Program-made: the position numbers and the translations under genes
The notes under the pieces: generated by a model
Seen by the model: only the letters and a program-made list of their open reading frames with translations
What the model was told of the DNA's origin: nothing
Databases searched by the model: none
Virus record (IMG/VR): IMGVR_UViG_2600255075_000001
Span: 32,001-96,000 of that record
DNA length: 64,000 bases
Source of the DNA: a virus
Lineage: Duplodnaviria; Caudoviricetes
Reading direction: 5' to 3' (one strand)
Shown here: positions 822 through 45,338 of the stretch, piece by piece
Numbering within the stretch: position 1 is the first letter of the stretch
How the letters are laid out: each line of letters opens with the position of its first letter

Positions 822-861
822 TTGGCAACCTCCAATAAAAATGAATTTTTATTGCATATAA

Positions 862-1596
862 TCATTTTTTAGAAACTCTTTCTATAGATTTCTCCCAATA
901 TTCTCTTTCTTTTTCAAAGCATATGTAGTTTCTTTCTTCCTCTAGACATGCAACCGCAGTAGTGCCACTTCCACTTGCATTATCCAGCACTATGTCGCCC
1001 TTATTTGTGTAAGTTCTTATAAAATATCTAAATAGATCAACGGGTTTTTGCGTGGGATGAATGGCTAGTTTTTGCTTGTCTGTTGAGAACTTTAGTACAC
1101 TTCTAGGATAACGCTCTGTGCTGCCTCCGCCACAAATACCAATCGTTGTTTTACCATAATTACTACCGTCGTCTTGGTGTTTTGTATAACTGTTGACCGG
1201 CTTATGCCCAATAGTTTTTTGAGGATTGTAAGTAGGTAAATTTTTATAAAACACCAAGACATTCTCATGAGCCTTCATAGGCATTTTCTTAGCATTTAAG
1301 TGACCTGTTGCTGTAGTCTTTTCCCAGATCCATTCATATCTTAACCAATCCAGGTTGCTATTGCCCAACACCTTATCGAATGGGGTTTGAGCCGTCAAAA
1401 CGATTGCTCCATTGTCTTTTATAATTCTCTTATAATGACGCCACAATACGTCTAAGGGAATAATGGAGTCCCATTTATTACGAGTTGTGCCATAAGGAAG
1501 GTCGCACAGAATCAAATCAATTGACTTGTTATTAATTAAACTCAGACCGTTCTCACCAAGACAATCTACATTATAAATCTTATTTAACTCTAGCAG
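862..1596 (-). CDS. N4-C/N6-A DNA methyltransferase (beta class); probable CTG start
   Basis: DLPY catalytic motif, HPTQKP and LDNASGSGTT SAM-binding motif. AAAGGAG lies 7 nt before CTG at 1596. Confidence 0.9.
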   Translation of the reverse strand: MLELNKIYNVDCLGENGLSLINNKSIDLILCDLPYGTTRNKWDSIIPLDVLWRHYKRIIKDNGAIVLTAQTPFDKVLGNSNLDWLRYEWIWEKTTATGHLNAKKMPMKAHENVLVFYKNLPTYNPQKTIGHKPVNSYTKHQDDGSNYGKTTIGICGGGSTERYPRSVLKFSTDKQKLAIHPTQKPVDLFRYFIRTYTNKGDIVLDNASGSGTTAVACLEEERNYICFEKEREYWEKSIERVSKK

Positions 1597-1842
1597 TTTC
1601 AAACTCCTTTCAAGAATTAGAAACAACAGCTATCACGGTTATAACAATAAAGCATACTGAAATTAAAACTGTCATTAACACAGTTGACCTATTCATATTT
1701 TTTTCTATATACATTCCTAAGAACACTCCGATGAAAACTATGACGCTTACCAGTAGGCCCATCCAAAGAGGATACCATTTGTCATTCATACTTAATCTCC
1801 TAATGCATTTAGATAAAAGCCTTCTTTTATTAGATCTTATTC

Positions 1843-2190
1843 TTAAATTAGCCTATACAAAAAAGCAAGGTCGGCATCGAGCGATTCTAATGTTGGAGTT
1901 TCGGCAAATGAATCATCGTCTTCTGGATCTGAAAGGTTATTAGAATTGTCAAATCGATAAAAAGACATCTGATCCATAATACTTTTGTTAGGGCTGAAAC
2001 GATTATCATTTCCTGTCTGGTAGATAGCACTGTTTTGTATCATCCTATTTACTTGTTCTTGTGCAGTGGGTAAGTGCTCACTAAGAAAAAAGAACGCTTC
2101 CTGTGCTGTGTCGTTGCCTTTATATGAAATATCTAGAATGTTTTCAATCCCCCAGATAGCTTTTCGCTGTTTTTCTGTCATTGGTTTCAC
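1843..2190 (-). CDS. Hypothetical protein
   Basis: 115-aa ORF with an AAGGAGG RBS. Confidence 0.6.
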   Translation of the reverse strand: MKPMTEKQRKAIWGIENILDISYKGNDTAQEAFFFLSEHLPTAQEQVNRMIQNSAIYQTGNDNRFSPNKSIMDQMSFYRFDNSNNLSDPEDDDSFAETPTLESLDADLAFLYRLI

Positions 2191-2220
2191 TGATTAATGC
2201 CCCTCCTTCTGAACATTCAC

Positions 2221-3384: not shown

Positions 3385-3655
3385 TTAATTCCTCCAATAA
3401 TAATTTCCACATTCTTTTTACCAAGTTTCGCGAGTTCATTTCACAACTTACTAAAGTCAATAAATCGCTTACTCATCGTCATACATATTCATTAGCTCCA
3501 TATCTCTGGAAAAACCTTTTTTAGCGCTATGGCACAATTTTCGTGCGTCTTCTTCACTTAAGTTAACTCCAACATCGTATACCTTTATACAGTCGTTTTT
3601 CCATTCATAAACTCGGTATAACATACTCTTTAAACCCCCGAATAAAATCTACCTT

Positions 3656-3922
3656 TTATTCACAAAAAGGCTTTCCGCTCTGGTCGTAAATCTGTGCTAA
3701 TGAACCGATACCATTCCTATCGGAAGTGCTTAGTGCAAAATAACATCCAGTCTTTTGATGTTTTACTGTAATTAATGACGCAGTGTCTGCTTGATCTACA
3801 GATACTACCGAAAATTCTTGACTATCAACTGTCGCCCGTTTAATTTCGGTTTCGGTCTGACCACAAGCAGCTATTAAGACTGATAGAAGACTTAGTACGG
3901 ATACTATAAAATTTTTTTTCAT
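3656..3922 (-). CDS. Small lipoprotein (DUF6440-like)
   Basis: Signal peptide with lipobox IAAC; KTGCYF motif. Confidence 0.6.
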   Translation of the reverse strand: MKKNFIVSVLSLLSVLIAACGQTETEIKRATVDSQEFSVVSVDQADTASLITVKHQKTGCYFALSTSDRNGIGSLAQIYDQSGKPFCE

Positions 3923-4497: not shown

Positions 4498-4893
4498 TTA
4501 CATCTCCTTGTTCGTACTGACTTATTCAATAAATTTTCCACTTCATTGTCTACAGTTTTCTTGTCATCCTCAAGATAATGGTCTTATTGTCGTAACCAAC
4601 AATCTTCATTCGCGCTGCTGCTCTCAATATCTCGATGGCATCTTCGTGGCACATAGGATAGGCATTAAGAATTTGTGCATACTCATTGGCATGCCCGATA
4701 GTACTCTTGAAACGATCTGATCGTGCTAAACCATTGATTAATTCCCTTCTTTAGGCTGAAACCTTCAATGTTACCATCCTTATCTAAGTGGATATCAGTA
4801 ATTTCGACCTCGCGACCATCGATAATGTCATAAAAATTTTGATCGATTTTATAATCCACTTCTATCGCTCCTATAAAAATCCGATTTTATCTC

Positions 4894-5565: not shown

Positions 5566-5578
5566 AATAGCCCTCCTT

Positions 5579-5950: not shown

Positions 5951-6794
5951 TATGAAACCTCCTCATGTATTTCGATTATTCAGTTTTGATACTTCATGCA
6001 ATCCTTCTAATTCTTCATCCCATTCTACCAAAGCCTTAACCCCGTCATGCATACCCCAAGCATTTTTACATCTTCTACACCCAACTTTGCGAACTTCAGA
6101 ACTGAATTACATGCTCGTTCTTGTCGGTTCGACGGATGCAATACAATTGCCTGAAATGAACACGTATATCCTTATGTCCCTTGTGTCCCGATAAAATGCC
6201 CATGCTTCAGAATCATTTCCCGTTACCATCTCCACCTTGCCGTTAATGACGCTTGTCAACACATAAACAATGTCGTGTTTTACCATTTGTTACGAACACC
6301 CCTATTCATCTAGATACTTCGCGAAGCTTCGCGGCAACTTCTTTGCCAAGCTCTGTAATCCTGTATTGATCGGCTCTGTAAGATGTCTTCCTGTCCTGGC
6401 TCCCCTGCCCACGGTGATCGGAAGCTTGTGCCATTCATCAAGTTCCAAAGCTCGCTACTAACTCGTCCATACGAACGCTCCCTGGAACAATTTTATTCAT
6501 CGAATTACTTCGCCTAGTTTCAGACATCCATCTTCTTCCCACGTAACAATAACTACATCTTCGCCATTTTGACGTATGGACCCCGCATCAGCGTAATCGT
6601 CATAAATTAAGGCTTCTCCAAGATCAGGAGAATATGCGTCATCTGACGACTCACTTCGCAAAAATTCACCGGTTTTTTCAACCGAATTACGTATTTCATA
6701 GAGCGCCTTCCTTTGCGACAAATTTATTCAATATGTTGTACTGCCGTCGATGAATCTTCTTTGTATCGTTTTACTTGCCTATAAAATCAAGTTT

Positions 6795-7412
6795 TTATTG
6801 TCTGAATTCCTTGTTGACGATCTTTGCTATATCTTTATATATCTCCTCAACTGATCTTAATCCATCAACAATCGCTTTAGCCGGTGCAGAGTAATTTGTA
6901 GATACATTTTTATAATTGCTACGTACTCTCGTGAGTAAGCCCAAATCTGATTCATATCTGTCATTTTCACCATGCTTTCCTTTTCTTTTCATGCTCTCTT
7001 CTGCTGGAATGTCGATTATAATGTCTAGATCAGGCTTCCGCATATACTTCTGTAATTCCATGATCCAACGTCCATCTCGCCCGTTAGCAAGCCCATAAGC
7101 GACTTGACAGAGGCTATACCTATCCAGGATTAAGAATTCATATTTCTCATTCTCTAGCTCAGTAAACCAGTCCTGCTGAGCCTGCTTATCCGCAGCCATA
7201 ATCAATTCAATCGTCTCTGCAGATACTTCCCATTCTTTACGTAACCACTTCATAATCAGCTCACCAGTTGGTGTTTCGTAGCGGTGGAACTCGCTCGACA
7301 TTACTTTAAATCCTTCGCTACGTAATCTCTCAGTAAGCAATTTTGATTGGGTGTGCTTTCCGCTTTTGTCTAATCCACCAATGCTGATGATCTTCATTTT
7401 ATTATTGTTCAA
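6795..7412 (-). CDS. tmk: Thymidylate (dTMP) kinase
   Basis: P-loop GLDKSGKHTQ, LILDRY and KPDL motifs. Confidence 0.9.
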   Translation of the reverse strand: MNNNKMKIISIGGLDKSGKHTQSKLLTERLRSEGFKVMSSEFHRYETPTGELIMKWLRKEWEVSAETIELIMAADKQAQQDWFTELENEKYEFLILDRYSLCQVAYGLANGRDGRWIMELQKYMRKPDLDIIIDIPAEESMKRKGKHGENDRYESDLGLLTRVRSNYKNVSTNYSAPAKAIVDGLRSVEEIYKDIAKIVNKEFRQ

Positions 7413-8271: not shown

Positions 8272-8373
8272 AACATTCCCTTCTTAATACTGTAATTTAT
8301 CTATATAAAAATCGCTCCTCGCCTTACAGATTCAGTTTGGACAAGGAGCGATTCGACTAATGAAATGTTCGTT

Positions 8374-9600
8374 TTATTGATTTAAGGCATTCACAAAATC
8401 TAAAGCTTCTTTAAGTTTTTCTGTATCATCCGATTTTAGAAAATTAACCACTCCGAGCAGTTCTTTCATTTTAGGCGCCACGATATCACTCTTGACCTCG
8501 TTGGCAATATCCTTCAAGGCATTTTTCAGTTCATTATGATAGTCTTCAGCAGTTTTCTCATCTTCATCTTTCAAACTGTCGATCATGTCTTCGGAAAATC
8601 GCTTAGCTTTCTCTTCCAACACTTCAATTTCTTTCTTACGGATATCTTCAAAGGAATCACCTTCGTCAAGTTGTCCTTCAATTGCCTCTTTAAACACCCT
8701 TACATATGTATCAATTCCATACAACTCTTTTTCTGGCAACACTTTAAAGCGTCCACCGGCGATACCAATATAACTAGATTCTCTAAAGTACATATAAGTT
8801 TGTGATTCATGAAACTTCGTAGCAATCTCTTTGCCATTTTTGTTTTCTAGGTTTTTATTTAATTCATTTCCTTCTTTATCTAAAGCTGTAACTTCATTGT
8901 GTAGGCAACAAATTAGATCTGCTTGCGACTGGAATACTTTACGGCAAGTAGTATTCATCATTAGCTCGATTGAGTTATATTTCACGCCATTGACGAGTTC
9001 TGTTGTTTTTTCTTTTGTCCAAGCTAAAAAAATCAAACCGTAGCCTGCAGCCCTTAATGTATCAATTGGGCGTTTAAGCTCGTCATATAGATTATTCCAT
9101 ACATTATCTTTATAAATCTTCGATTCTGATAATTCTTGAATTGATGTGAAATTATTTCCGGGATACTTGTTATTCGCATTAACGATGATATAAGCAGAAG
9201 CGCAATCAATCATTCTGTCAACAGTGTCGAATCCTACCACTTTAGAAATACGAGAAACCTTTGATTCCTGTACTAGCCCAGTTACTATTTCTTGTTTGAA
9301 ATAAATCCACCTGTCTGAATCCATCTCAATATCGGTCTTTATTTTTATCTTACCATTTTTAATTTTTTCTTCTTCTTTTTTATATTCCACCAAATCGATT
9401 TTCGATTTCAGTTTCCACGTTTTATACCCAGGTTCCCAAGCTACAAGCAGTCCTGCTTCTGGTTCGTTAGGGAAAAAGTATTCAATGATTTCCTTCCACC
9501 AACGAGTCTTGCCTGATTTATAATTTCCAGCCGTTAATAAGATATAGGATTGTAAGTCTACCTTTGGAATATTCGCCGTAACGAGATTTCGAAAAGACAA
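8374..9600 (-). CDS. AAA_24/Sak4-like ATPase (SPbeta YorG-like)
   Basis: Walker A GNYKSGKT and Walker B VVGFDTVD; adjacent to the SSB-like gene. Confidence 0.7.
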   Translation of the reverse strand: MSFRNLVTANIPKVDLQSYILLTAGNYKSGKTRWWKEIIEYFFPNEPEAGLLVAWEPGYKTWKLKSKIDLVEYKKEEEKIKNGKIKIKTDIEMDSDRWIYFKQEIVTGLVQESKVSRISKVVGFDTVDRMIDCASAYIIVNANNKYPGNNFTSIQELSESKIYKDNVWNNLYDELKRPIDTLRAAGYGLIFLAWTKEKTTELVNGVKYNSIELMMNTTCRKVFQSQADLICCLHNEVTALDKEGNELNKNLENKNGKEIATKFHESQTYMYFRESSYIGIAGGRFKVLPEKELYGIDTYVRVFKEAIEGQLDEGDSFEDIRKKEIEVLEEKAKRFSEDMIDSLKDEDEKTAEDYHNELKNALKDIANEVKSDIVAPKMKELLGVVNFLKSDDTEKLKEALDFVNALNQ

Positions 9601-10802: not shown

Positions 10803-10937
10803 TTAAAAATATCATTCTCCTTTTATATTAATTTCTTTTACTTTATATGTGCATTTCACTATAAAATTCTTCTTTTATTGCTGCTCTCTTCTCCTTTCTC
10901 AGAGTATCTATATAATCACCATATGGTGTTATTTTAG

Positions 10938-11051: not shown

Positions 11052-11089
11052 CATTTATTTTTATCTTCTTACCCGGGAGTTAATGAAAC

Positions 11090-11554
11090 TCACATTTTAT
11101 CCGCTCTTTGAGTTTTAAACCCTTCGTATCTAGGCAAATATAAGCAATGTAATATTGACTCAATTAAATTTAAAGTAAAGACGCCCAGTTTCGCATCTAT
11201 TTCTATGTCAATTCGATCAACATTGTTTTTAATCCAATCTCCTACTGTTGAACTTGAAAGTGAGTAGAACTCCATTGCCGGATCTAAAATAATTGACTTC
11301 GCGAGATTACTCTGTGAACTCTCCGGATTATAGTGCTGACTATAAAATCTAGCCTTGCTATTGCTTCCTGCTTTCCCTATTTTTAAATAATCTCCATTAA
11401 AGCTAAAAGTATAAACATACATCTTGCCTTGTTTAAAGGTACATTTATGCGGTCTTCCTCTGTTTACTATAGCTATCTGTTCATCGGTTGGATATATATT
11501 GACCTCGTTCAACATCTTATATAAAAGCTGCTTAACATCTTTGTTCATATCCAC
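11090..11554 (-). CDS. GIY-YIG-like nuclease domain protein
   Basis: VYTF...YLKIGKAG...R...H pattern with a downstream Glu. Confidence 0.5.
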   Translation of the reverse strand: MDMNKDVKQLLYKMLNEVNIYPTDEQIAIVNRGRPHKCTFKQGKMYVYTFSFNGDYLKIGKAGSNSKARFYSQHYNPESSQSNLAKSIILDPAMEFYSLSSSTVGDWIKNNVDRIDIEIDAKLGVFTLNLIESILHCLYLPRYEGFKTQRADKM

Positions 11555-11808
11555 GAACGATCACTTCCTATAAAAGATTCGTTTTATTAGATTTACTCAA
11601 CCAAATGCCATTTCTGATTTATATATCCATATTTAAATTCATCAGTGGGATACCATGACTTTCCATCATCTATAGAATCAACAAGTTGATCCCCTTTCTT
11701 TTTAAATAAGATCCCGTAATCATCTCGTACTGTATGACCTATTTCCATCATTCTGAACGCCTCAAATATGCTCACTTCTTATCTCCCATTCCTCATAAAA
11801 GGCTAATT

Positions 11809-12171: not shown

Positions 12172-12191
12172 CGCCCTTTCTCATAAAAGAC

Positions 12192-12476
12192 TCATTTTAT
12201 TTGCTCAATAATTGCTTCCATTTCATTAATGTTATGTTCTAAAATACTTTTCAGTTTATCTAATGATTCATTCTTTGCTTCATTAATATCCTTACTCTTT
12301 AGCTCTATTTTATCTAAATCGAGATATCTCGAACTTAGCAGCCACATGTCAGAACCATAATGAATATGTCTGTGAACCATAATATCAGCCTTATTAATAA
12401 CTGCGGTCCAAGATCTAGGCTCTGTGTCCTTTCTTTTTCTTTGACTATAAGATGTAGTGTCTTTCCATGTAATCAT
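12192..12476 (-). CDS. Hypothetical phage protein
   Basis: 94-aa ORF with a GGAGGAG RBS. Confidence 0.65.
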   Translation of the reverse strand: MITWKDTTSYSQRKRKDTEPRSWTAVINKADIMVHRHIHYGSDMWLLSSRYLDLDKIELKSKDINEAKNESLDKLKSILEHNINEMEAIIEQIK

Positions 12477-12549
12477 ATGTTTCTCCTCCTTATCCGATAA
12501 AAGAATTGTTTTATCGTGTTTCTCCTGTATAAGGTTATTACTGCTCAGC

Positions 12550-13203: not shown

Positions 13204-13242
13204 TAGCTAATCACTTCCCATAAAAGTATTATTTCATCTAAA

Positions 13243-13656: not shown

Positions 13657-13679
13657 CCATTTCCCATAAAATATTTGTT

Positions 13680-16479: not shown

Positions 16480-16549
16480 ATTAATCACCTTTACTTTTTT
16501 AGTCCCCTTGATATTAGATACCAAGGGGCCAATTGGTTTTATAGCTTTT

Positions 16550-34070: not shown

Positions 34071-34904
34071 TTATAAAACATATTCAACAAACACTGGCGA
34101 TCTCAATAGTCCTTTTTTAGTCCAATTTCTTGTTTTAATCCGAGCCTTTATTAGCGGCTCAAGATAGACAGTACTTTTGTCTTCTTTGTAAGTGATCGAT
34201 CTTTTTATGACATTGAATGCTTTTTTTGCTTCTGGATTCACACCCAATTCAATAACACCGGCAGCTCTCATTTTGCCTGTCTCATCTATAACTGATGTGA
34301 GCCATCCAAATTCGTTCTTTTTATAACCTGTAATAAACACTTCGGCATATGTCCAATTTATTACCTTCTGCCAATTCCAAGATCTCTTGCCTATTTCGTA
34401 TCTTGACTCTGCCATCTTTTGAACTAAGCCCTCTAATGCATTTGCCTCTACAAGCTCATAAAGGGCACTAGCTGAGCCGAGAGACCATTTAACCTGTTTA
34501 TATGACTCCGTCTCACTAAAAGATTCCGAAAGCAATTCTTTTCGTTTTAACAGTGGCAATCCTGATGTATCAATTCCTTTATATCTTATAATATCAAATG
34601 CAAAGAATGTGACTAAGGTTTTATCGGTTTTGGACTTGAATCTTTTAGATAATGCTTCGAAATCAGGTTTTCCTTGGGCGTCAATTATGACTACCTCTCC
34701 ATCAATAATTGTTCCTTCTGGTAATGGACAATCTAGCAACTCTGAAAATATAGACGTTACCTCGTTATTGTGCCGAGTGTATAATTTCACACCATTTATA
34801 GTACTGATTATCAGTCTAAATCCATCAAACTTCAATTCATTTATATAAGCAGCTTCATCACTTGGATTATTTGCCGTTTGTAAAAGCATAGGAGAAACAA
34901 ACAT
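34071..34904 (-). CDS. ATP-dependent DNA ligase (SPbeta LigB/LigD ligase-like)
   Basis: ELKFDGFR, IDGEVV, FDII, EGLVQK and WQKVIN motifs. Confidence 0.9.
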   Translation of the reverse strand: MFVSPMLLQTANNPSDEAAYINELKFDGFRLIISTINGVKLYTRHNNEVTSIFSELLDCPLPEGTIIDGEVVIIDAQGKPDFEALSKRFKSKTDKTLVTFFAFDIIRYKGIDTSGLPLLKRKELLSESFSETESYKQVKWSLGSASALYELVEANALEGLVQKMAESRYEIGKRSWNWQKVINWTYAEVFITGYKKNEFGWLTSVIDETGKMRAAGVIELGVNPEAKKAFNVIKRSITYKEDKSTVYLEPLIKARIKTRNWTKKGLLRSPVFVEYVL

Positions 34905-35604: not shown

Positions 35605-35845
35605 AAGCCATATGAAATACAAATTTTATCGTGGAATAAAAAGTGGCCGCTGTTATACGGCCACACGGTTTCCTTTAGTTACATAAAAAATATTGTCATC
35701 CTTACACATTTGAGTAAACAAGTTGAATTTTTCAAAATCGTCAAATGTGTAATTGTTTATGGCTAACTCATTTCTCCACTTTTCAATTGTTGTAACTGTA
35801 TACATGAACATTCTCCTCCGTATTAAGCTCATAAGTTGTATTGTT

Positions 35846-36860
35846 CTATTCCGAGCTCTCAGATACAAAGTGGTTGTAAAGAGCCTGGAGTCCATTTACA
35901 CGCCCCCAAACCTGATCCTTCTTTGTAGTCCCCCCAACGCAGTAGCGACGATAAGAATCCCCCTTTTTGTTATTCTGTGAGTACCATTGTAAAAACGCCG
36001 ATACTTTTTCTTGATCGCTGTTATTCAAGAATAAGGCGACCATCGAAGGAATATTTACCTTCGTTACGAACTTGGATTTGTCCTGGAATGTTTTCTCAAT
36101 GTTGTTATATGCAGAATCGAGTAATTGTAGTGTCTCATCTTCAATTTCGTTTTGTTTAAAGATAGCTTCAACATCCTTTGTTGAAAAAGAGGGGAAATCT
36201 AATTTACCCGCGATAATTATGGATTGAAGTATGCACATTTGACGATCCGATTTCTTAATACTTCCCTCCGGGAAATGTGCAACGTTTAGAAACAGGCCGC
36301 TTTTATTAATTCTTTCATGTCCATAGTTTTGAACTTTTTTCGAAGCAGATACAAAAGCAAGATGCTCTTTTGAAACAGGTTTTCCGTTATTCAGTCTATA
36401 AAAGACAGTGTCTATGATACTTTCTTCATCATCGTTCTCATCGAATTCCAAAACCCTGAAGGTTATCATAAAACTGTTTATTGAATCTTGCACCTCTTCA
36501 GGAAGCTCTGAAAATCTTAATCCGGATATGTCGTAGGTTTCACCATTAGACTCAAGCGTCACCGGTTCCAGCTTCGTCAAAGCAAATTCATCTTTTCTGT
36601 AAGAATAAAAGATGGTAAGCCTTTGTTGACCATCGATGACATCATAGACGTTTACCTGTTTTTCATTAATAATTTTAGGAGTCTGAACAGCATACACATC
36701 AGGAACGAACAAAGTTAGAGACGAATGAATAAGCAACGAATTGTCTTCAATCTTCCATTGCCCTGATGGACGTTGAATAGGGTGATCAAAAGTAATAGTC
36801 CCCCCGCTCGATCATGCTGCAAATTTGTTTAACGTTCCAGGATAAAGGTTTTCTAATCAT
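35846..36860 (-). pseudogene. DUF262 (ParB-like) protein frameshifted in a G6 run at 36800-36805
   Basis: ATG at 36860 with RBS. Removing one G gives ERGTITFDHPIQR, in frame with DGQQRLT and FYRLNNG. Confidence 0.75.
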
Positions 36861-37649
36861 ATATTAGTGCCTCCTGAAGAATTCGATATGGTAATATTGT
36901 ACAACGAGTCATTTGTTGCTGTTACCAATTTTGCTAGCTAGATGATAAAATCAATGTTTTATTACCTATATGTACTTAAAATGCTTATGCGAATGATACA
37001 ACCATTTCATGATACAACTTGATATAGTGTTCATCGATTATTTCATATGCGCGCGGAGAAAAATATACACTGTTCATCTTATCAGCGGCCGCGGTTCTTT
37101 CATTGATAAATTCAATTAAATCGTCTGCATCATCGAATATTTTCGTTTGAGATTTTCTAGTATCGATCTTAGTAGCATCTCTCAAGCTAATGACAACACT
37201 CCTGCTCTCATCAATAACATCAAGATTGCCGTATTTGTTTATAGCAGTGTGATAACTACTCATAATAAAAACTCCTTAATAAATTTAATTAGTATACTTT
37301 TATTTTATAATTCATCATTCATTAATTTTATTGAAATGATCCCTTTAGATAGAAAACTGTCGGATAAAGCGAACTCGCCATCTTTGTCAAAAAAGAAGTT
37401 GTATTCTCCTTCCTTCCGACTAAAAGTTGCAAGTTTAATGACGACACCATAATCTAACGAGTATATGTTTCCTGGTGTAAAATCCATATTCGCTTCACCC
37501 CTTCTATGTATTTCCTACTCCTTTATTATAACACAAACTAGATTAATAGTATAGTTTTATTTTATTAATCAAACGATGAAAACAGTTTTTCATCGTTCTA
37601 TAACTTCATACCTCTCTATATTTCCCCTTGAACATCAAACCATTTACCA

Positions 37650-38525
37650 TCACCATATTCTACTCACTTCGTCATTCGTTTGAGATAAAACAATTTCATT
37701 TCTTTTTGTAATATTTTTATCTTTCATAAGTCTTCCTATTTCAAATAATGCCGCGAACTCAACTGATAATGCCTTTGCGATTATCGTGTTACCGTTGGTT
37801 CTGTAAAAATTTATTCCATCAGTATATACATGCTCATATATAGGACTAATATCATAAACATATGCAGGTTTAAGATCTCCAACACCATTTAATATTCCTG
37901 CTGAAATAGAGTGATTACCTCCATTTACAAAGCCTATCCTCATTGGCAACCAAAATTCAATGTTATGATTGTTGCTTTTCTCCTCCCATTCACCCCAAAA
38001 CCGACCTTTGCCAATGTTAACCATCGAGTTTAATTGTCTCCCTTTATTCCAAGGCCAAGGTAGTACAAGATCCTCTTTCAAAACTACTCGTTCATTTTCT
38101 GCAGGTAAATCCATGAAGAAATCATACATCTTTTTGCCGTTACTTTTGTCGATCACCTCGGATATACTAAACAAGACATGCCATGCATCAATATTCGGTA
38201 ACCTCTCAAATTCCTTGCCTTGATATAAAAGGTTTGTAATGTACTTAGTTTGCAGCCGTAATCCTATAAGTTTAATAGTATCAAATATTGGATGACGTTC
38301 TGGCATTTCGATCTGATCGCATTTTATTTGCCTTTGCTCGTGATTTTCAATCACGATCTTTGCATAGCTCATTAAATTATCGAACAATATCTTCTTTTGA
38401 CCAAAGGATGCTTTGACATCTGAGTTATAAACACTAGTTTTTTCGTCCGCTTCTTCCTTTGATAATTTACTCATTATATGCTTGAAAAAATCTATTAGTT
38501 TCTCCCCCTTATATAGAATAAACAT
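37650..38525 (-). CDS. DUF6710-like protein
   Basis: VLPWPW...NH...WLPM..GGNHSISAG pattern. Confidence 0.55.
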   Translation of the reverse strand: MFILYKGEKLIDFFKHIMSKLSKEEADEKTSVYNSDVKASFGQKKILFDNLMSYAKIVIENHEQRQIKCDQIEMPERHPIFDTIKLIGLRLQTKYITNLLYQGKEFERLPNIDAWHVLFSISEVIDKSNGKKMYDFFMDLPAENERVVLKEDLVLPWPWNKGRQLNSMVNIGKGRFWGEWEEKSNNHNIEFWLPMRIGFVNGGNHSISAGILNGVGDLKPAYVYDISPIYEHVYTDGINFYRTNGNTIIAKALSVEFAALFEIGRLMKDKNITKRNEIVLSQTNDEVSRIW

Positions 38526-38710
38526 ACAGGAAGTTTATACCACATTTTGAATTATGACTTCTTACTATGAGCAAGCAAACTTGTTTATTGGTATGACGCT
38601 CAGCCAAATGAATTTGTGAGATTTAATATATCTCGTTCTATACAAATTTGTGTTCACCATATTTATTTATGTAATGAAATAGCCATTTCATAAAATTTCC
38701 TCATTGTTAA

Positions 38711-39508
38711 TTACCATCTAAACATATCATTGCTATCACTATTTGTACTGTTGGCATTCGAAAACCCGTCCAAATCAGGAAATAAGGTTTCATTTCTAAT
38801 GTCAAAACAATCAATTAAAATTTTTCGGCACTCCAATTTTAATTTAGCTGTGATTGCAATACTTAAATTGGCGTTATTTTCCTTAGGTAATTTTAAACTG
38901 CCACTTTTTATTCCGCTTACATCGCTGTATAAAAATACTCCATGTTGAGCTGCAATTCTCTTCGATACGACGGGAGTTTCAATGAACATAGGATGATCGT
39001 ATTTACTTAGATCCTTTGTTAAATCACTATAATCACGATCATCAAGAACACCTTCAATACCACCCCCTACAAAATTTGTATGTACACCTAACAATAGTCC
39101 TGTTTTGTCTTGATTCGCTTGAACACAAAACCATAAACCAACTAGTGAGTTTTTAGAAAAATCAACAAGCCTTGTCGCTGCTCCGTGATGTTGCAATTTG
39201 GCAAGAAGTTCTGAATCACTAATCTCATTCCCATACAGCTTTCCGTAGCCTTTGTGTCTCGCTTGTTTTATCAGAGATTCTTCATAGTTAATGATATCGT
39301 TCTCTAAAATATTGGGCTTCGAATTAATCAGTTTTCGATAGGCGCCACTATGTATAGGCCAATCAATATTACTTTGACCCCGCCATAACCTAACATTATT
39401 GTATCTTCCAGAATTATTAATAATGACCAACTCAGTTAATTCTAAAAAAGATTCTGGTGCAAATACTTCGCCAAATAATTCAGTTTGTAAGAACTTCATA
39501 ATATCCAC
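38711..39508 (-). CDS. FRG domain protein
   Basis: WRGQSN, LQHHGAATRLVDFS and RIAAQHGVF motifs. Confidence 0.85.
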   Translation of the reverse strand: MDIMKFLQTELFGEVFAPESFLELTELVIINNSGRYNNVRLWRGQSNIDWPIHSGAYRKLINSKPNILENDIINYEESLIKQARHKGYGKLYGNEISDSELLAKLQHHGAATRLVDFSKNSLVGLWFCVQANQDKTGLLLGVHTNFVGGGIEGVLDDRDYSDLTKDLSKYDHPMFIETPVVSKRIAAQHGVFLYSDVSGIKSGSLKLPKENNANLSIAITAKLKLECRKILIDCFDIRNETLFPDLDGFSNANSTNSDSNDMFRW

Positions 39509-40008
39509 CTCGTGACTCGTTCAGTTAATGTAAATTAATTTAGAATAAAACAGTCATTTCATTTCAAATTCATAAATATCGAATTCGTCCCAGATTTGCC
39601 ACTTTACATTTGATAGTTTTTCAAGGTCAATATTTCTCATTCCATGACTTAAATATGCTTTATCACGTGTTCCATTTATTACATCTAGTATTCTATTATT
39701 GATTCCCTCAACGGACTGATCAACCAGAATATAAGATGCCCCACCATCTAAAGTATCTTCAAATTGAAACTTGGAGCCTCGCGATTCCTGAATTAATCCC
39801 TTTAATTTGCGTTTATAAAACTTTGGCTTATAATCAATTTCAAGCATTTCTCTTTTCCTCTCTTTCCTCATAAAATAACCCTTATATCGCCCATTTGCAT
39901 TATATATTCTTATTATACTGATTTAACCAAAACAATCATAGGTAGGGTAACATTTGTTCCATTAAACTTTGATTATGTATTCCTTGATCCTTTTGATCGA
40001 CGCCGCTG

Positions 40009-42630
40009 TTATATAGCTTCTGCCGCGTCATCCTCCATCTTATCAATAATAACTAGGACAGTATTAACTGAGGTTCCCGATTCTTTAAAAGATCCTTCGG
40101 GTAACATATCGTAGTATCCACGCTCATTTAACCATTCGCGGAATTCTACACTTTTAAAATCGTTCGCAAAGGTGAAATGAGGAGACATGATAGCAACAAT
40201 ACGTCCACCATTCTTTAGGCACTTATAGGCATGCTGCACATGGGCTATGTCTTTGTTGCGTTCGAATGGAGGATTCATAATGATTTTGTCGAAATGGTTA
40301 TATCTAACATGTTCAAGGAAATCATATCCAACAATATTGTATTGTTTAAGTTCTAAAATCTCACGAAGTGAACTGTTCCACTCTATCCCCTCTAGATCCG
40401 CAGCTATGCCGTTTTGCTGACAATGTGCTGTTATACTGTCTAGAATGTTCCCATTACCCGCAGACGGTTCGAGGACTGTCTCTCCGTCTTTAATATCTGC
40501 ATAGCTCAGCATGTGTTCAACAATGGTTTTAGGTGTAGGATAGTAGCCGTCTATTTTCTTGAATTTAACCTCAGCTTCAAGTTTCTTGATTTTCTTTATT
40601 ATTGGGTTTACCGGCTTCTCAATTTCCGCGATGATTGTTTCATATTCATCTAATGCACTGTTGTATTGATATGTATTGCATATATTCGCTCTATTAAGCA
40701 TCTTTTGTTTTTTGGGAACTTGAAGATTCCACATGCCATCAAGAGGTAAACTATAATCAATTTCAGGATATTTAGTCTCCCGTTTAAACTTTGTTCTTGA
40801 GATAAATCGATTATGAATGTCATCTCTAAACGTACCAACTAAAAGAGCTTGTTCTAATTGTGTCATGCTGTTATGGATTGCTTTATCTTTTAGATATTGA
40901 AGCAAAGCAATTTCAAGTCGTAGCCTTTCCCGCTTATTTTCTCTATTTTCCTCCTCATTTTGACGCTTCCATGTGTTAGTAAGATAGTTTCTGCTTATTG
41001 CATTAAGTTTCTTTTGTGCCGATTCAATTTGCTTCTCAATCTTGCCAATATTTTGTTCCTGATTGGATGAAATTGGGTTTTTATCGGTTTTCTCTCCATT
41101 TTGCTGTTTCATCTTTGAGCTGCTGATATTCATTACTTTTAGCGATTCCAGAGCCTCCACAATGAGGGAAGAGCCTTGCCCATAGGAACGGAATAGTCCA
41201 ATCAAGATCTCGGATACGAAGAAGCCTCTTTCTTTTACATAGTCCGATATCTTTGCTTTATATTCTGTTTTCTCTTCCTCAGTTTCTGGACGCTTAATAT
41301 TGCCATACTGATCCGACATAATAGATGTGGAATAGTCCATAATCCAATCTGCAGCATCTTCTATGGTAATGCTGGTATCATGAGCGCCGGCTGTTATAGG
41401 TGATTCTTGAGCCTCTGCAAAGCCTAATAGCGCTTTTAACTCTGCTGTGATATCGTGACCATTCTTCGATTTGGTAATAAGTTGTGATGCTTTGTCTTTA
41501 GTAATGACAAGGTTTGTCGTATTGAGTTTTGTAGCACAATGGAGAGCCCACAATTGACGCTTAGTTGCCTGTTTTTCATCAGTTACAGTTTCATTTTTCG
41601 TGTAAGTTTGCTTCTTCTCTGTTGACGCCTCTTCGGTGTCTCCGGACAATGCTGGTGCGTCCATATTTGCTTTAGGTTGTTTACGCGACGTCTTCTTAAA
41701 TACAATTTTCTCTTCATATTCTGTTGCTTCTTGCAATTCAACGATAGAAATGTGTCCTTTCTGAAGGAGATCGTTTATTTTGTCCGTAGACACAAACATT
41801 GTTTTTCCTTTAGCCTTAGAAGGCTTGCCATTCTTGCCAAGTTTGGAAAAAGATCCGCTTTTCTTGTCATCATAAACATACACACATTGCCACTTAGTAC
41901 CCTTCCAATTGCCGTTAGTGTAGTCGCACTTCATAATGAACGTAGTTCCAGTTTTAAAATCTTCTGCTGTTATAAAGGTTTTTTCAACTTCTACAAATTT
42001 AACGATCGTTCTAGGAACAAGTATAATTTCTGATTCAAGTGTATCGGAATTGCGCAGAACCTTTTCGAAACGGTTCACAATAGCAATTACTCTTTCTTGT
42101 TTCTGTTGTTCAGCCGTTTTTGTTTTATCTTTATAATCATAATCATTGCAAGCGAATACGCCGGTTCCCTTGCCTATAATTTGACCGTCCTTTTCAATAT
42201 GCCAAGAACAATTACCTGGATTTTCATAAGTGAATGAAGGGTAAGTTTCAACAACTGTAAATTGCGGTTCCGTATCCCTGCATCTCAGACGTTCGATACC
42301 TGCTAGAGCCGCCGCGCGCTCCCCTTCGGTAGCACCAGAGTTAGCGGCCGCAAGTTTGTGTAATTTTTCTAATTTACGATTAATATCCTGATTGGTTTTA
42401 ACACTGCTATAAAGTACTTGCTTCTTTTCATATCCCGAATAGTATGTATTAGAATGATCGATAACGAGAACATAACCATTTTTTTCAGCGAGACCATCCC
42501 AAGAAGCTGGGTCAAAATAATCAGTCATTGAGTCGCTGCAATCTTCTTTATACCCATAAGTCTTCCAGCCACGTTTAACGAGTTCCCGCATAATTAATAC
42601 TTTAGCTTCTCTCTTATCTCCATACCACAT
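40009..42630 (-). CDS. Large multidomain protein with a C-terminal N6-adenine methyltransferase domain
   Basis: YYPTP, VLEPSAGNG and IMNPPF motifs in the last ~190 aa. Confidence 0.8.
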   Translation of the reverse strand: MWYGDKREAKVLIMRELVKRGWKTYGYKEDCSDSMTDYFDPASWDGLAEKNGYVLVIDHSNTYYSGYEKKQVLYSSVKTNQDINRKLEKLHKLAAANSGATEGERAAALAGIERLRCRDTEPQFTVVETYPSFTYENPGNCSWHIEKDGQIIGKGTGVFACNDYDYKDKTKTAEQQKQERVIAIVNRFEKVLRNSDTLESEIILVPRTIVKFVEVEKTFITAEDFKTGTTFIMKCDYTNGNWKGTKWQCVYVYDDKKSGSFSKLGKNGKPSKAKGKTMFVSTDKINDLLQKGHISIVELQEATEYEEKIVFKKTSRKQPKANMDAPALSGDTEEASTEKKQTYTKNETVTDEKQATKRQLWALHCATKLNTTNLVITKDKASQLITKSKNGHDITAELKALLGFAEAQESPITAGAHDTSITIEDAADWIMDYSTSIMSDQYGNIKRPETEEEKTEYKAKISDYVKERGFFVSEILIGLFRSYGQGSSLIVEALESLKVMNISSSKMKQQNGEKTDKNPISSNQEQNIGKIEKQIESAQKKLNAISRNYLTNTWKRQNEEENRENKRERLRLEIALLQYLKDKAIHNSMTQLEQALLVGTFRDDIHNRFISRTKFKRETKYPEIDYSLPLDGMWNLQVPKKQKMLNRANICNTYQYNSALDEYETIIAEIEKPVNPIIKKIKKLEAEVKFKKIDGYYPTPKTIVEHMLSYADIKDGETVLEPSAGNGNILDSITAHCQQNGIAADLEGIEWNSSLREILELKQYNIVGYDFLEHVRYNHFDKIIMNPPFERNKDIAHVQHAYKCLKNGGRIVAIMSPHFTFANDFKSVEFREWLNERGYYDMLPEGSFKESGTSVNTVLVIIDKMEDDAAEAI

Positions 42631-43138
42631 AATATTACATCTCCTTGCTATGTATTATTTTATTTTTAAATTCAAGATTTAGTTGCTGTTATATGATCAA
42701 TGCAAGGGATAATAGTAACATTTTATTTGGTATTAAAAGAATCGGCTGCAACGTATGAAGCTAAAGTCATTTTTAATAATTCCTTTGTTTTTTTGTCTGT
42801 CTCTTCTTTTATTAATTGTTCAAACTGTTTAATAATTTCATCTTCTTTTGTTTTCATCTAATCGCTCCTTATCGTATAACTGTATAACCGTTTTCTTCTG
42901 CCCATTCTTTAGCATTTTTTCTACTATTCAATACATTTATTACCCATCCACCAGCCTCGCACAAAGAGCCAGTTAGAGGATAAAATCTTAAAGCTTTTAT
43001 TTCCCATTTTCTATTCTTATTATTTAATGCAACTCGCCCATCGAACCTAATAGGTATATTTAATTCTTGATTCATCGTTTTATCCTCCTATGAAATTAAA
43101 ATTTCATTGCCTGATTAAATACAAGCACAGTATTCTAA

Positions 43139-44314
43139 TTAGCGGGTGTATCTATACAAATAACAGTTACCATGGCTAACAGCGCTTATGCCGTCGCGGG
43201 TCTTTTTAACTAAACGCCTTTGTTGTTTCTCGCTGATAAATTCGTCTGCGATTGGTTTTAGATCCTCAATCTTGATTTCTTGAGTTAAGACACTTTTATC
43301 CGTAGTCTTAACGATTTGGAAAGCTGCTCGTATATTATCGCTTGTACTCCATTTTAAAACTAAAATCTCACCAACATTAAACGGATTGGGTTCAGTTTCT
43401 TTCTTATCTGTCCATCCTTCGGGAATTTTCATTTCTTCGATTTCGGCATATGGATAGTAGCAGTAGCACCCTTTTAAATGCTGGTCAATGTAATCGCCGC
43501 TAACCTTCTTAGGATTTACCTTTAAAACAGTTGCCCAGAGTCCTCTTACTTTTATCAAATAACCTACCTTTACAGTATCTTTGCTATATTCAAAGCCTCC
43601 AATTTCATCCATGCGGTTTTGTAAATAAGCAAGTTTATCGACTTCGTATTCCATCCGATCTAGCAATTTTTGCAGCCATTCTTCATCATTTCTTTCTTCT
43701 GCCTTGACAATATACCTTTCAAGGCTACGAATTTCCTTTTGGCACTCCTCTATCCTGTTATTCAAATAAGGCTTACTATTGAGTTTTGTTTGGTCTGCTG
43801 TTGCATGCGCAGTTTCTGCTCGTTCCTTGAAATATTCGCTTTTTCGATACTCATCGAATCCTTTATGGTAACGGTTTAAAACCCTGTTTCTTTGATTTGT
43901 GAAAGCTCTACCTGCGCTGCTGTTTATATTCGGTTGCGTCAGCCATGACCAGTCTTTGCGCAATTCATCAAACTCCTGTTGCAATCCTTTCGCTCTATTG
44001 GCTGCATTATCTGCGTATTCTTCATAGCGTTCCGCCCTACGTTCTGCTTTCTCCGCTTTCCGTTCTAGCTGTTCAGCATATGACAAACGCTCGCCTTCCT
44101 GTCCTCCGTTTGTAAAGCCCAACTGTTCAGCAACCCGAAGGGCCGAATAATGATTATTCGTTGATTTCGACACCCAAGCTCCTGCATAGCTTGACCATGT
44201 AAAAAACCGCCTCAATTCTTTTTTCTGCACTTCTGGCATTGATTTGTATTCGTCTTTTGTAAAACGCAATTCAATTTTCTGTGTTTCACGATTTAAAATG
44301 TATTGGTTTGACAT
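43139..44314 (-). CDS. DUF3560 domain protein
   Basis: ERRAERY...A...QPNINSSAGRAF...R...KSEYFKERA. Confidence 0.7.
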   Translation of the reverse strand: MSNQYILNRETQKIELRFTKDEYKSMPEVQKKELRRFFTWSSYAGAWVSKSTNNHYSALRVAEQLGFTNGGQEGERLSYAEQLERKAEKAERRAERYEEYADNAANRAKGLQQEFDELRKDWSWLTQPNINSSAGRAFTNQRNRVLNRYHKGFDEYRKSEYFKERAETAHATADQTKLNSKPYLNNRIEECQKEIRSLERYIVKAEERNDEEWLQKLLDRMEYEVDKLAYLQNRMDEIGGFEYSKDTVKVGYLIKVRGLWATVLKVNPKKVSGDYIDQHLKGCYCYYPYAEIEEMKIPEGWTDKKETEPNPFNVGEILVLKWSTSDNIRAAFQIVKTTDKSVLTQEIKIEDLKPIADEFISEKQQRRLVKKTRDGISAVSHGNCYLYRYTR

Positions 44315-44367
44315 ATTTATTCCTCCTATAAAATCGAAATTTCATTGCCTGATTAAAACGTTTTTTG

Positions 44368-44823
44368 TTACTCTTTCCATCCCTTTTTAATCGTTGCAAA
44401 ATCGCCAACTTTAATTATGTGAGCTTTTGTTTTACTCTTGTATATCCTAATAGTAACCGAGTTGTCATCTGCAAAATGAACAGTTCCTTTGCCGCTCATC
44501 TCACCAAATATTGTATCAACCGTGTAACGGACCTTATCTCCTTGATTTAAAGACTGGATAACTTCTCTTTGCATAATTGTTTGAATGAGATCCACTGTCA
44601 AATCATACTTTTCGGCATACTCAAGTGCTTTTTCATATGGCAGACCAACCATACAATAATTCCCCCAATAAGGAGCTACAAAACCGCTGTCACGCCTATA
44701 CGATTTAATATTATTTTCTTTTATATCTAAATCAATCAATTGCTGGAGCGTCTTATACTCCTCTTCTGTTCGGTTGTATATGTTAATTCGAGCCACCTTA
44801 TTTATTCCATTCACATTGAGCAC
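44368..44823 (-). CDS. Hypothetical protein
   Basis: 151-aa ORF. Confidence 0.55.
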   Translation of the reverse strand: MLNVNGINKVARINIYNRTEEEYKTLQQLIDLDIKENNIKSYRRDSGFVAPYWGNYCMVGLPYEKALEYAEKYDLTVDLIQTIMQREVIQSLNQGDKVRYTVDTIFGEMSGKGTVHFADDNSVTIRIYKSKTKAHIIKVGDFATIKKGWKE

Positions 44824-45338
44824 CCCATTATTGTTTTTAGGCTTTGCAACTTTCTCATTACATTAAATCAAATAAAATCAAACTTTTATCGTTCATTAAA
44901 ATACAAAACCTTTATTAAATATGATTTCGATCATTCTTTCATATTCCGATTGTGGCTGGTTAATTCTATCCGATTCAAATGTAAATCCTCTACCGCATAC
45001 ACCAATTAGTCCATTTTCAATGAGAATATAAAATAAATGTTTATTTCTGGGCTCATATTCCTCTATGTATTCAATTACTAAGTTTTGTTTGTAGATGTTT
45101 TCTTGATTTACTGGTCCTCCACCAAAGAAATGTGACACAAGAGAATTATAGAGATTATATATATTTGCATTTATTAATAAGATTACGTCTTCCGTATTTA
45201 ACACCTTATTCTTTACTGCTTGAATCGCTTTTTTAAATTGAGTTTTTGATTCAAATACTTTTTCGGTAACTGCAAAATTAAACATTTTCACTACCTCCAT
45301 TATCCCATCTGAAAAAATACTTGCATACATTCTTTTAT

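Follow-up and report, generated by a model that had tools for sequence, protein, structure and literature searches.

The mosaic build of phage genomes has been explained either by special linkers at the borders of modules or by random recombination followed by selection, and to our knowledge clear linkers at module borders are rare. Sites that shuffle genes elsewhere have a defined anatomy: the attC sites of integrons are imperfect palindromes of ~60-140 bp with paired R/L boxes and extrahelical bases, which are recombined as folded single strands, and the integron head consists of an IntI-type integrase beside an attI site and a cassette promoter. The dif and pdif sites comprise 28 bp, with distinct 11-bp XerC and XerD arms around a 6-bp centre. 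In heterospecific lox/FRT cassette exchange, an engineered use of Cre and Flp, 13-bp inverted arms surround a short centre and exchange is limited to same-centre partners; a genome with many different centres would be safe from internal deletion and would still permit the swap of a block between two matching addresses. Here, we analysed an 18-bp palindrome, ATRAAA-N6-TTTYAT, which recurs in a stretch of 64,000 nucleotides of Caudoviricetes DNA (IMG/VR record IMGVR_UViG_2600255075_000001, positions 32,001 to 96,000; hereafter, the window). The window corresponds to G000:C30:50148-114147, G000 being the genome that carries the studied prophage, with an assembly of 6.43 Mb. As judged from alignments of related phages, the element coincides to the base with points of divergence between relatives, and the centre peculiar to a copy persists when both neighbours are replaced.

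On Acinetobacter plasmids, multiple pdif sites with 6-bp centres flank single adaptive genes in varied contexts; each of these sites is a copy of the dif of the host, has distinct XerC and XerD arms and needs the host Xer proteins (Mindlin et al. 2019, PMC6449649). The PeSL of T4-type phages is a short repeated intergenic element among small non-essential genes, composed of a strong sigma-70 promoter and a terminator hairpin; the changes that separate close relatives, whether insertions, deletions or replacements, fall on these repeats, recombination occurs by homology between copies, mini-circles were demonstrated, and the element may be regulatory yet act as a crossover point (Arbiol et al. 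2010, PMC2839356). The stoperators of Cluster A mycobacteriophages, present as dozens of copies of a short site in the intergenic gaps of a temperate phage, are asymmetric and orientation-locked and change with the immunity repressor (PMC9283540, PMC6550527). In phage SPbeta, a single dispersed element has been described, SPBRE, which is the recognition site of the master repressor MrpR, as derived from ten peaks in chromatin affinity purification sequencing, electrophoretic mobility shift assays and reporter data, and the loss of recombinase function in MrpR has been published (Kohm et al. 2023, PMC10516654). The homolog of phage phi3T, SroF, binds a 26-bp asymmetric box as a monomer (Chmielowska et al. 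2025, bioRxiv 10.1101/2025.11.27.690993).

Exact matches to the pattern, which consists of a 6-bp arm, a 6-bp centre and a second 6-bp arm, were counted and compared with 100 dinucleotide-preserving shuffles of the window and, for genomes, with a reversed-pattern control. The window contained 41 exact sites, 40 of them at 835-44889 and one at 53834, against a mean of 0.29 and a maximum of 2 in the shuffles. An earlier reading of this DNA (the original prediction) had counted 39 copies in the first of these regions plus that at 53834 and had expected fewer than one by chance; the copies are real and the enrichment was borne out by the shuffle scan, and the exact number had to be corrected. The whole G000 assembly revealed 73 sites versus 5 for the control, 69 of the 73 being located within C30:18335-144934, a prophage of ~130 kb with a G+C content of 0.33-0.39 versus 0.524 for the genome. 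Outside the prophage, 6.3 Mb of G000 hold 4 copies only. An unbiased scan for gapped palindromes (5-bp inverted arms, gaps of 0-12) ranked TAAAA-N6-TTTTA first, with 40 occurrences versus 2.45 expected, and the same palindrome was the top de novo gapped palindrome in four genomes, G000, G083, G051 and G069.

According to the list of open reading frames (ORFs), the window genes are on the minus strand up to 50346 (the early arm) and on the plus strand thereafter (the late arm); all gene and junction statistics rest on our own simple gene caller. A start codon was found at most 40 nt downstream of the site in 27 of 41 cases, and in 24 of 41 the upstream stop codon overlapped the site or was at most 12 nt away. 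At five sites, the stop codon is the TRA within the arm (stops at 3656, 6795, 8374, 13680 and 31104), which are exactly the five positions named in the original prediction. The sites are mostly located in short intercistronic gaps, often between one stop codon and the next ribosome-binding site, with 39-40 of the 41 window copies outside long ORFs. The claim that essentially all copies stand at gene junctions does not apply to the copy at 41067, which is clearly intragenic, lying inside ORF 40009-42630. Each of nine previously named single-gene units holds one minus-strand ORF of at least 50 amino acids between two sites, and the cassette-like anatomy of such site-bounded units is real.

Judged by its predicted proteins, the window phage is a distant SPbeta-like prophage; no DNA-level match to the window was returned from the phage collection. 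Site counts versus the reversed control were 44 vs 5 in G083, 80 vs 10 in G051 and 31 vs 9 in G069. Among the named phages, SPbeta has 14 sites vs 1, phi3T 16 vs 2, Goe12 18 vs 1, SPbetaL1 and SPR each 13 vs 1, BUCT082 15 vs 0, Tsamsa 21 vs 0, FADO 30 vs 1, Geobacillus virus E3 24 vs 0, Psychrobacillus phage Perkons 38 vs 2, Alicyclobacillus phage KKP_3916 12 vs 0, Staphylococcus phage SPbeta-like 10 vs 0, Staphylococcus phage 6ec 6 vs 1, Brevibacillus phage Sundance 3 vs 0 and Lactococcus phage 949 2 vs 0. Most of 60 genomes sampled across the bacterial class were near the reversed control, an excess being found in four of them (G158, 51 vs 10; G148, 50 vs 22; G184, 20 vs 8; G192, 16 vs 6). 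A generic AT-rich or class-wide motif was ruled out by the reversed-pattern controls and the 60 sampled genomes; the element belongs to a phage lineage, the SPbeta-like supergroup, and not to the hosts.

G083 carries a close relative of the G000 prophage, with an MrpR homolog that is 96% identical. Comparison of the two by blastn showed 21 of 80 block ends in the prophage to be at most 10 bp from a site, whereas 2000 trials with random positions averaged 1.6 such ends and never exceeded 8; of the called gene boundaries, just 9% are this close to a site. Several homology blocks, such as C30:46414-46616 and C30:73311-73784, are site-gene-site units. When 162 early-arm junctions were classed by the homology cover of 80 bp inside each neighbouring gene, the 55 site-bearing junctions comprised 24 breakpoints, 6 with both sides homologous, 25 with neither and none ambiguous, and the 107 site-less junctions comprised 15 breakpoints, 39 with both sides homologous, 49 with neither and 4 ambiguous. 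For breakpoint versus both-homologous junctions, site-bearing versus site-less, this gave a Fisher odds ratio of 10.4 (p = 8e-6). One single-gene unit together with both its palindromes lies at C30:143.1-143.9 kb, near the right end of the prophage, in G000, but G083 has it midway along the early arm. An environmental relative is represented by contigs obtained from the rhizosphere-metagenome run X3 (runs X1-X3 are assembled contigs), which start or stop matching the window at 23903, 25483 and 28529, the edges of three palindromes. The one joint reported in X1/X2, 25504->26918, was considered as an excision product and ruled out, the contig coming from elsewhere in the same genome and sharing a TCAGTT-centred palindrome. 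The DNA comparison of G051 with G069 gave no usable homology.

For the SPbeta clade, 2018-nt SPbeta queries with the palindrome at positions 1001-1018 were subjected to megablast. With the palindrome at 83687, phi3T and its hybrids matched 1001-2018 at 100.0%, BUCT082 matched 1001-1433 and SPbetaL1 matched 1-1023; in the alignment, SPbeta and phi3T show no relatedness ahead of the palindrome and are identical from its first base onwards, over 1018 bp. With the palindrome at 116414, which lies between yorZ and yosA, the matches of Goe12, Goe13 and SPbetaL2 ended at 1018, the last base, and with that at 132746 the SPbetaL4 match started at 1000, 1 bp before the palindrome. The palindrome at 113663 showed no clean homology edge by megablast. 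The Dragos preprint lists a single non-homologous phi3Ts-SPbeta joint 'following yosA'. An all-against-all comparison of six complete SPbeta-clade genomes yielded 52 of 1027 unique homology ends at most 5 bp from a palindrome, with palindromes plus margin covering ~0.3% of the genome. A breakpoint was held by 54 of 76 palindrome-bearing junctions versus 389 of 1208 others, giving a pooled odds ratio of 5.2 in which independence is overstated, the genomes being kin. The check that had been proposed with the original prediction, whether presence/absence breakpoints fall at the sites, was thus positive both for G000 versus G083 and within the SPbeta clade.

The centres were compared between genomes in the same manner. 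Between G000 and G083, 23 of 5382 pairs have identical centres where ~1.3 are expected, and these are in collinear order; both flanks were homologous in 5 of them, one in 12 and neither in 6. Across the SPbeta clade, 122 of 6582 oriented cross-genome pairs have identical centres, with ~1.6 expected by uniform chance, and examination of 375 bp of flank by blastn/tblastx revealed homology on both sides in 47, on one side in 50 and on neither in 25. An identical-centre scan with ungapped flanks in G000, G083, G051 and G069 gave one pair, intragenomic in G083. Some joints of the SPbeta clade consist of a conserved ~45-bp piece, in which the palindrome is combined with an A-tract box resembling that of phi3T SroF and with a ribosome-binding site, with different genes on both sides in different phages. 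As a separate observation, a palindrome with the centre TCCGTG (or its complement) recurs at G000 C10:8706, G069 C1:268628 and 557312, and G085 C1:2496909; at the copies outside the prophage or in other genera, the neighbouring genes are without homology to the G000 cassette protein.

On balance, we lean towards reading the palindromes as preferred crossover points, that is, as addressed joints for module exchange among co-resident relatives. The two identical 6-bp arms would be read on double-stranded DNA by a two-fold symmetric protein, the 6-bp copy-specific centre would serve as an address, and the block between two matching addresses would be swapped between co-resident relatives with gene order undisturbed. 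Two routes may be envisaged, which we hold about equally likely: centre-matched site-specific exchange by one orphan tyrosine recombinase, YopP-like or YomM-like, or short-homology recombination by the phage annealing machinery at an element kept for another, regulatory reason, like the T4-type PeSL cassettes. A natural recombinase-mediated cassette exchange, in which the YopP-like or YomM-like protein would pair equal-centre palindromes of two co-resident genomes and swap the intervening block, is regarded as a tentative and rather doubtful proposal; under it, accessory and immunity genes would be reshuffled in order and without scars while synteny is preserved.

The candidate enzymes are a YopP-like tyrosine recombinase at 49294-50346 on the minus strand (Pfam Phage_integrase, 2.8e-10; 30-32% identity to SPbeta yopP) and a YomM-like tyrosine recombinase whose gene (C30:118759-119742) immediately precedes a palindrome and the tape-measure gene. 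The two proteins are kept in G000, G051 and SPbeta, and alignment with relatives showed that they retain Arg, Lys, His-x-x-Arg/Lys, His and Tyr across 20-30% identity, the YopP-like protein with the box I Arg, Lys, His-x-x-Lys, His and Tyr. This is set against the MrpR homolog of the window, whose box I Arg and box II motif are lost according to the alignment. In G051, which also has the site, the proteins of the G000 prophage reach no more than 59% identity. Conservation and retained catalytic residues are what would tie the recombinase at 49294-50346 to the sites, as a candidate. The YomM-like protein matches archaeal XerA-type structures; it was found in 129 phage records, and the YopP-like protein in 95. 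As a side observation, the XerA-like recombinase (G000 C30:118759-119742 and homologs) is conserved immediately upstream of the tape-measure gene and occurs in SPbeta-like, Tsamsa-like and FADO-like phages and in virulent Lactococcus 949-group phages. Identifying the binder of the palindrome by the presence of YomM or YopP was ruled out, since Lactococcus phage 949 has both and 2 sites.

Several points weigh against crossover as the function of the palindromes. Every line of support is comparative. Lactococcus phage 949 encodes YopP-like and YomM-like proteins with only 2 copies, and Brevibacillus phage Sundance has a YopP-like protein and 3 copies; therefore, enzyme presence does not predict the site. 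Site-less junctions also break frequently: breakpoints make up 15 of the 54 that are informative in G000, and the share in the SPbeta clade is 32%. The palindrome is therefore neither necessary nor unique. The sharpness of the breakpoints is partly explained by selection for intact genes, because the gaps are so short that viable joints fall near the site. Homologous blocks nearly always contain the whole palindrome including the centre, which is also expected from ordinary homologous recombination in a shared backbone. Six conserved base pairs per arm are short for a tyrosine-recombinase arm, and the counts overstate independent events because the compared genomes are kin. All 57 early-arm centres differ, one centre (TCAGTT) occurring twice in the whole prophage, but such diversity is near chance expectation and carries little weight.

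The same placement may be explained by a purely regulatory or architectural function, in which a conserved phage protein, for instance YopQ/SroE, an Xre-type regulator or an HU-like protein, binds between cistrons and blocks, pauses or insulates transcription with no causal part in recombination. The sites would then be the borders of expression units, with which mosaic joints coincide since selection keeps whole units; we regard this account as a serious, though less likely, rival. The window encodes candidates for such a binder: a YopQ/SroE-like DndB-domain protein at 19063-20397 on the minus strand (Pfam DndB, 3.1e-9; 28% identity to SPbeta yopQ), a YonR-like Xre-type helix-turn-helix protein at 26336-26683 on the minus strand (Pfam HTH_3, 1.9e-16; 38% identity to SPbeta yonR) and a YonN-like HU protein at 53489-53773 on the plus strand (Pfam Bac_DNA_binding, 6.6e-34). 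The position of the sites is in line with regulation, being 5' untranslated or intercistronic and by ribosome-binding sites, as are several SPbeta MrpR boxes, and many site-less junctions also carry breakpoints. The ~45-bp linker of the SPbeta clade combines the palindrome and a ribosome-binding site with a box of the SroF type (bioRxiv 10.1101/2025.11.27.690993), and for 4 of 14 SPbeta palindromes an SPBRE box lies 85-278 bp away. What SroE, the second repressor, does is left open by the 2025 preprint.

A regulatory site accounts less well for the centres and the edges. A centre that is not contacted needs no conservation, yet it is identical in 25 cross-genome pairs without homology within 375 bp on either side, and 6 G000/G083 pairs share the centre with neither flank homologous. 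Homology edges are 0-1 bp from the palindrome edge in many lineages, and sigma-70-like promoters are not enriched in the region. The same arms are present in SPbeta and phi3T, which belong to different immunity groups with different repressor boxes; as the arms are constant across immunity groups, the site cannot set immunity. Brady et al. (2023) are reported to have found that SroE and SroF bind multiple sites in the phage genome. If the published sites of SroE are these palindromes, the binder is already known.

The statistics of arms and centres were derived from the transcribed strand of the 57 early-arm copies. Base three of the left arm and its right-arm partner were distributed as AT 30, AC 13, GT 8 and GC 6 of 57, which is near independence and includes 13 non-pairs. 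For six position pairs within the centre and outside the arms, pairing was no commoner than after shuffling, and hence no covariation was found. Since the arms vary independently and nothing covaries, the element fits a site on double-stranded DNA for a protein with two-fold symmetry and not an RNA hairpin. There is a mild asymmetry, with A at position 12 in 38 of 57 copies, C at -1 in 31 of 57 and a purine at 0 in 51 of 57, and in SPbeta the arms extend weakly to ~11 bp. That the sites are an RNA element, a small AU hairpin before each ribosome-binding site acting as a processing, stability or translation signal, is therefore very improbable. The sites do stand on the transcribed strand just upstream of ribosome-binding sites, and the SPbeta record marks two copies simply as stem_loop features, at 2622-2651 and 116406-116431. 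However, 13 of 57 copies would have an A-C mismatch at the third pair, the arms are independent, pairing is not in excess either within the centre or outside the arms, a stem of six A-U pairs is very weak, and the symmetry is retained on both strands regardless of gene direction.

A promoter function was likewise not supported. No conserved hexamer was found at a fixed distance from the 57 early-arm copies, sigma-70-like promoters were not enriched in window 1-40000 (71 vs 74.7 in shuffles; 88 vs 89.2), nor were terminators in the same region, and sigma-70 promoters or terminators were ruled out on these grounds. The first late-arm gene (50884-53241, plus strand) encodes a YonO-like single-chain RNA polymerase (Pfam RdRP, 5.5e-17; 54% identity to SPbeta yonO). 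In SPbeta, the late genes form one operon transcribed by YonO from a single start (PMC5467207). Sites acting as YonO promoters were ruled out because YonO uses one SPbeta promoter and the sites are densest in the opposite, early arm. The lack of promoter enrichment and the single YonO promoter imply that the sites are not promoters of either polymerase.

The original prediction had offered a global operator of an MrpR-like repressor as its alternative. The sites would then be the SPBRE of this phage, that is, operators or stoperator-like roadblocks of the MrpR/SroF-type master-repressor homolog at 18041-19042, which would silence the early arm gene by gene. This protein, on the minus strand, has the recombinase fold (Pfam MrpR_N_CB, 1.3e-24, and MrpR_C_cat, 6.3e-14; PDB matches 8a0a, 4.7e-27, and 9rd5, 7.9e-30), and a full-length MrpR homolog encoded beside a YopQ-like gene is what an MrpR operator would call for. 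SPbeta-family repressors bind many dispersed AT-rich boxes (PMC10516654; bioRxiv 10.1101/2025.11.27.690993), and repressors of Cluster A mycobacteriophages halt transcription at numerous intergenic sites (PMC9283540). SPbeta, however, holds both elements, with different sequences at different places. Boxes upstream of the published peak genes read AAATACAAAwAATATGTAT, with 11 strong matches at the ten peak genes; 4 of 14 SPbeta palindromes lie at the 85-278 bp from a box noted above, and 10 of 14 have no strong SPBRE closer than 1 kb and do not belong to the ten published peaks. The phi3T box is 26 bp long, asymmetric and read by a monomer.

Moreover, the palindrome does not track MrpR homologs. 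G081, G086 and G082 encode homologs that are 62-69% identical with the same recognition helix as the window protein, and no palindrome excess was found in them, there being 0-3 one-mismatch copies near the MrpR gene; G051 has a homolog of 44% identity with a different helix, yet 80 palindromes. As both elements occur in SPbeta at different places and MrpR is not tracked, the MrpR-operator reading is unsupported and we consider it improbable; the global operator is contradicted by the different sequence bound elsewhere in SPbeta and by the same-helix homologs in palindrome-free genomes. What the palindrome shares with the SPBRE/SroF boxes is the phage family, the dispersed AT-rich intergenic position, often just upstream of a ribosome-binding site, and, for the boxes, a reader protein with recombinase fold. 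It differs in sequence, position and copy number, and SPBRE varies with the immunity type whereas the palindrome arms are constant. Independently of this, a phi3T-SroF-like box was seen directly beside some palindromes (SPbeta NC_001884, 132764-132790 and 113681-113707; phi3T, 107905-107930), SPbeta carrying SroF-like boxes although its own repressor recognises a different box. The yopQ/mrpR-like pairs at G081 C1:3.695-3.735 Mb, G086 C17:~140-155 kb and G082 C43 are 53-69% identical to those of the window and form small low-GC islands without large prophage or palindromes; they may be remnants, or stand-alone repressors conferring immunity.

Membership in an integron or pdif-like system, as suggested in the original prediction, was not supported either, and a true integron (attC/IntI) or Xer-dependent pdif system is hardly credible. 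The resemblance lies in promoterless one-directional units of ribosome-binding site, ORF and site: the early-arm genes are all on the minus strand, promoters are not enriched, and nine single-ORF units stand between two sites. Inverted arms around a 6-bp centre and tyrosine recombinases are also present. Unlike attC, which is a long imperfect palindrome, the site is 18 bp long with perfect 6-bp arms and no pairing beyond them; the arms are symmetric and not of XerC/XerD type, and sites around a unit cannot alternate in orientation, having none. As to an integron head, the tyrosine recombinases give general Phage_integrase matches only; one is located at 49294-50346 and others beyond the window, none of these positions heading an array. 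Whereas the Acinetobacter pdif sites derive from the host, the palindrome is specific to a phage lineage, is near the control in most sampled chromosomes and has only the 4 copies in 6.3 Mb outside the prophage.

As defining features of integrons, pdif sites, SPBRE and stoperators were tested and found lacking, the element is not a member of these families. By analogy, it seems to work most like the PeSL cassettes and to be laid out like heterospecific recombinase sites. It shares with PeSL the short repeated intergenic form and the mapping of differences between relatives to the repeats; it differs by having no promoter or GC-rich stem, an A-T-only stem, 12 conserved bases and a copy-specific centre, with copies sharing almost no homology, and, where mini-circles were demonstrated for PeSL, the palindrome system is known from sequence comparison alone. 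With the lox/FRT sites it shares the inverted arms around a short centre: same-centre pairs number 23 between G000 and G083 and 122 in the SPbeta clade, and within a genome the centres differ, a uniqueness that is near chance. Its arms are of 6 bp, unlike the 13 bp of those sites, and no recombinase is tied to it. The number of copies, 69 in ~130 kb of a temperate phage, recalls the stoperators, from which the palindrome differs by symmetric arms, with weak asymmetry only, that are shared by SPbeta and phi3T.

No description of this palindrome was found in the literature on SPbeta-family repressors, YonO, arbitrium and stoperators, a body that did not cover Lazarevic et al. 1999 and Brady et al. 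2023; word look-up in two SPbeta preprints gave no mention of it under palindrome, inverted repeat, mosaic, breakpoint or hotspot. The palindrome is an 18-bp element whose signature is conserved and of protein type and whose centre is particular to each copy, and it occupies mosaic joints throughout a supergroup of large Firmicute phages; as this supergroup includes the genetically tractable SPbeta and phi3T, the question is directly testable in Bacillus subtilis. If the palindromes are addressed joints, they would explain the clean reassortment of immunity regions and of defence and counter-defence genes, exemplified in SPbeta and phi3T by the border at which the repressor/antirepressor region meets the yopW block. 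If they are only regulatory, they would still be an undescribed second dispersed control site in a model phage. In addition, the element offers annotators a simple marker of exchangeable units.

The individual copies in the window are given here with their 6-bp centres and with their relation to the blastn homology blocks of G000 versus G083 ('shared' denoting the same centre in G083). Block ends fall on the last base of palindromes 1813-1830 (GCCTTC) and 20522-20539 (TCTTGT; upstream of the yopQ/mrpR-like pair), both shared with one flank homologous, and a block starts on the first base of 26330-26347 (TCAGAC), also shared with one flank homologous. A block start lies 1 bp before 3642-3659 (TCTACC), whose arm holds the stop of ORF 3656-3922, and 1 bp before 23165-23182 (GTCAGT). 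A block end lies 1 bp beyond 8360-8377 (TGTTCG), whose arm holds the stop of ORF 8374-9600, 1 bp beyond 23619-23636 (TTCAAG), where block 23164-23637 is a site-gene-site unit, and 1 bp beyond 30420-30437 (GACTTA), which is shared with both flanks homologous in a sensitive test. Other edges were found 2 bp beyond 835-852 (ATGAAT), 3 bp before 6781-6798 (TCAAGT; arm with the stop of ORF 6795-7412), 6 bp before 10861-10878 (TTCTTC), 8 bp before 15040-15057 (TTATCT) and 12 bp before 29605-29622 (TCGCTC), the latter two being shared with one flank homologous; those at 835-852 are block ends and the other four block starts. A block end falls inside 22357-22374 (TTGACC).

Further shared centres are those of 4873-4890 (ATCCGA) and 32353-32370 (GGATCA), with one flank homologous; of 12183-12200 (GACTCA), 14220-14237 (TTGTTG), 25487-25504 (TCAGTT; second copy at C30:143145), 31309-31326 (TAATCT) and 32035-32052 (TATTCA), with neither flank homologous; and of the late-arm copy 53834-53851, located after the HU-like gene, with both flanks homologous. 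The X3 contigs begin an exact match at 23903, the first base of 23903-23920 (CTAGTA), match from 25483 at the TCAGTT-centred copy, and end their match at 28529, next to 28511-28528 (TTGCTT).

Palindrome 11083-11100 (CTCACA) precedes a strong minus-strand sigma-70-like promoter at 11051-11023 and together with 11570-11587 (GATTCG) bounds ORF 11090-11554. Palindrome 12497-12514 (GAATTG) bounds ORF 12192-12476 as well as ORF 12550-13203 and is followed by 13220-13237 (GTATTA) and 13666-13683 (TATTTG), the arm of the last holding the stop of ORF 13680-14069. An RNA-ligase-like ORF, 14245-15024, is bounded by the palindromes at 14220 and 15040. Copies with the centre as their only entry are 24924-24941 (TCTCCA), 30697-30714 (TACTTC), 36945-36962 (TCAATG), 37576-37593 (ACAGTT) and 44872-44889 (TCAAAC). 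The arm of 31090-31107 (GAATCC) holds the stop of ORF 31104-31310, and 35612-35629 (TACAAA) adjoins a terminator-like hairpin at 35664-35643. The FRG-domain ORF 38711-39508 is bounded by 38674-38691 (TAGCCA) and 39545-39562 (CAGTCA), and the DUF3560 ORF 43139-44314 by 43090-43107 (TTAAAA) and 44328-44345 (TCGAAA). The only clear intragenic copy, 41067-41084, is within an 873-amino acid methyltransferase-like ORF.

Among the other genes of the window, a LigB-like ligase at 34071-34904 was assigned by Pfam and SPbeta comparison. The palindrome-bounded units at 35846-36736, 37650-38525, 38711-39508 and 40009-42630 encode a GmrSD-N-like nuclease domain, a DUF6710 protein, the FRG-domain protein and the large N6-methyltransferase-like protein; together these resemble a cluster of genes for defence or counter-defence. 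The yopQ/mrpR-like pair is immediately followed downstream by a gene of the AgrB family (17356-17958; Pfam, 4.4e-12) and one for a LytTR DNA-binding protein (15964-16572), which suggests peptide signalling beside the lysogeny module, replacing the arbitrium genes of SPbeta. Enrichment of ACGAA-N6-TTCGT (6 vs 0.13 expected) was observed in a prophage region of G069 (C1:255-355 kb); these sites resemble SOS (LexA-type) boxes, which would fit the LexA-controlled antirepressor that a preprint describes for SPbeta-family phages. At 22390-22625, four direct repeats of ~34 nt with a spacing of 65-69 nt, the last two identical, form a CRISPR-like mini-array between the palindromes at 22357 and 23165, with no cas gene seen in the window; contigs of the runs X1-X3 break inside this mini-array.

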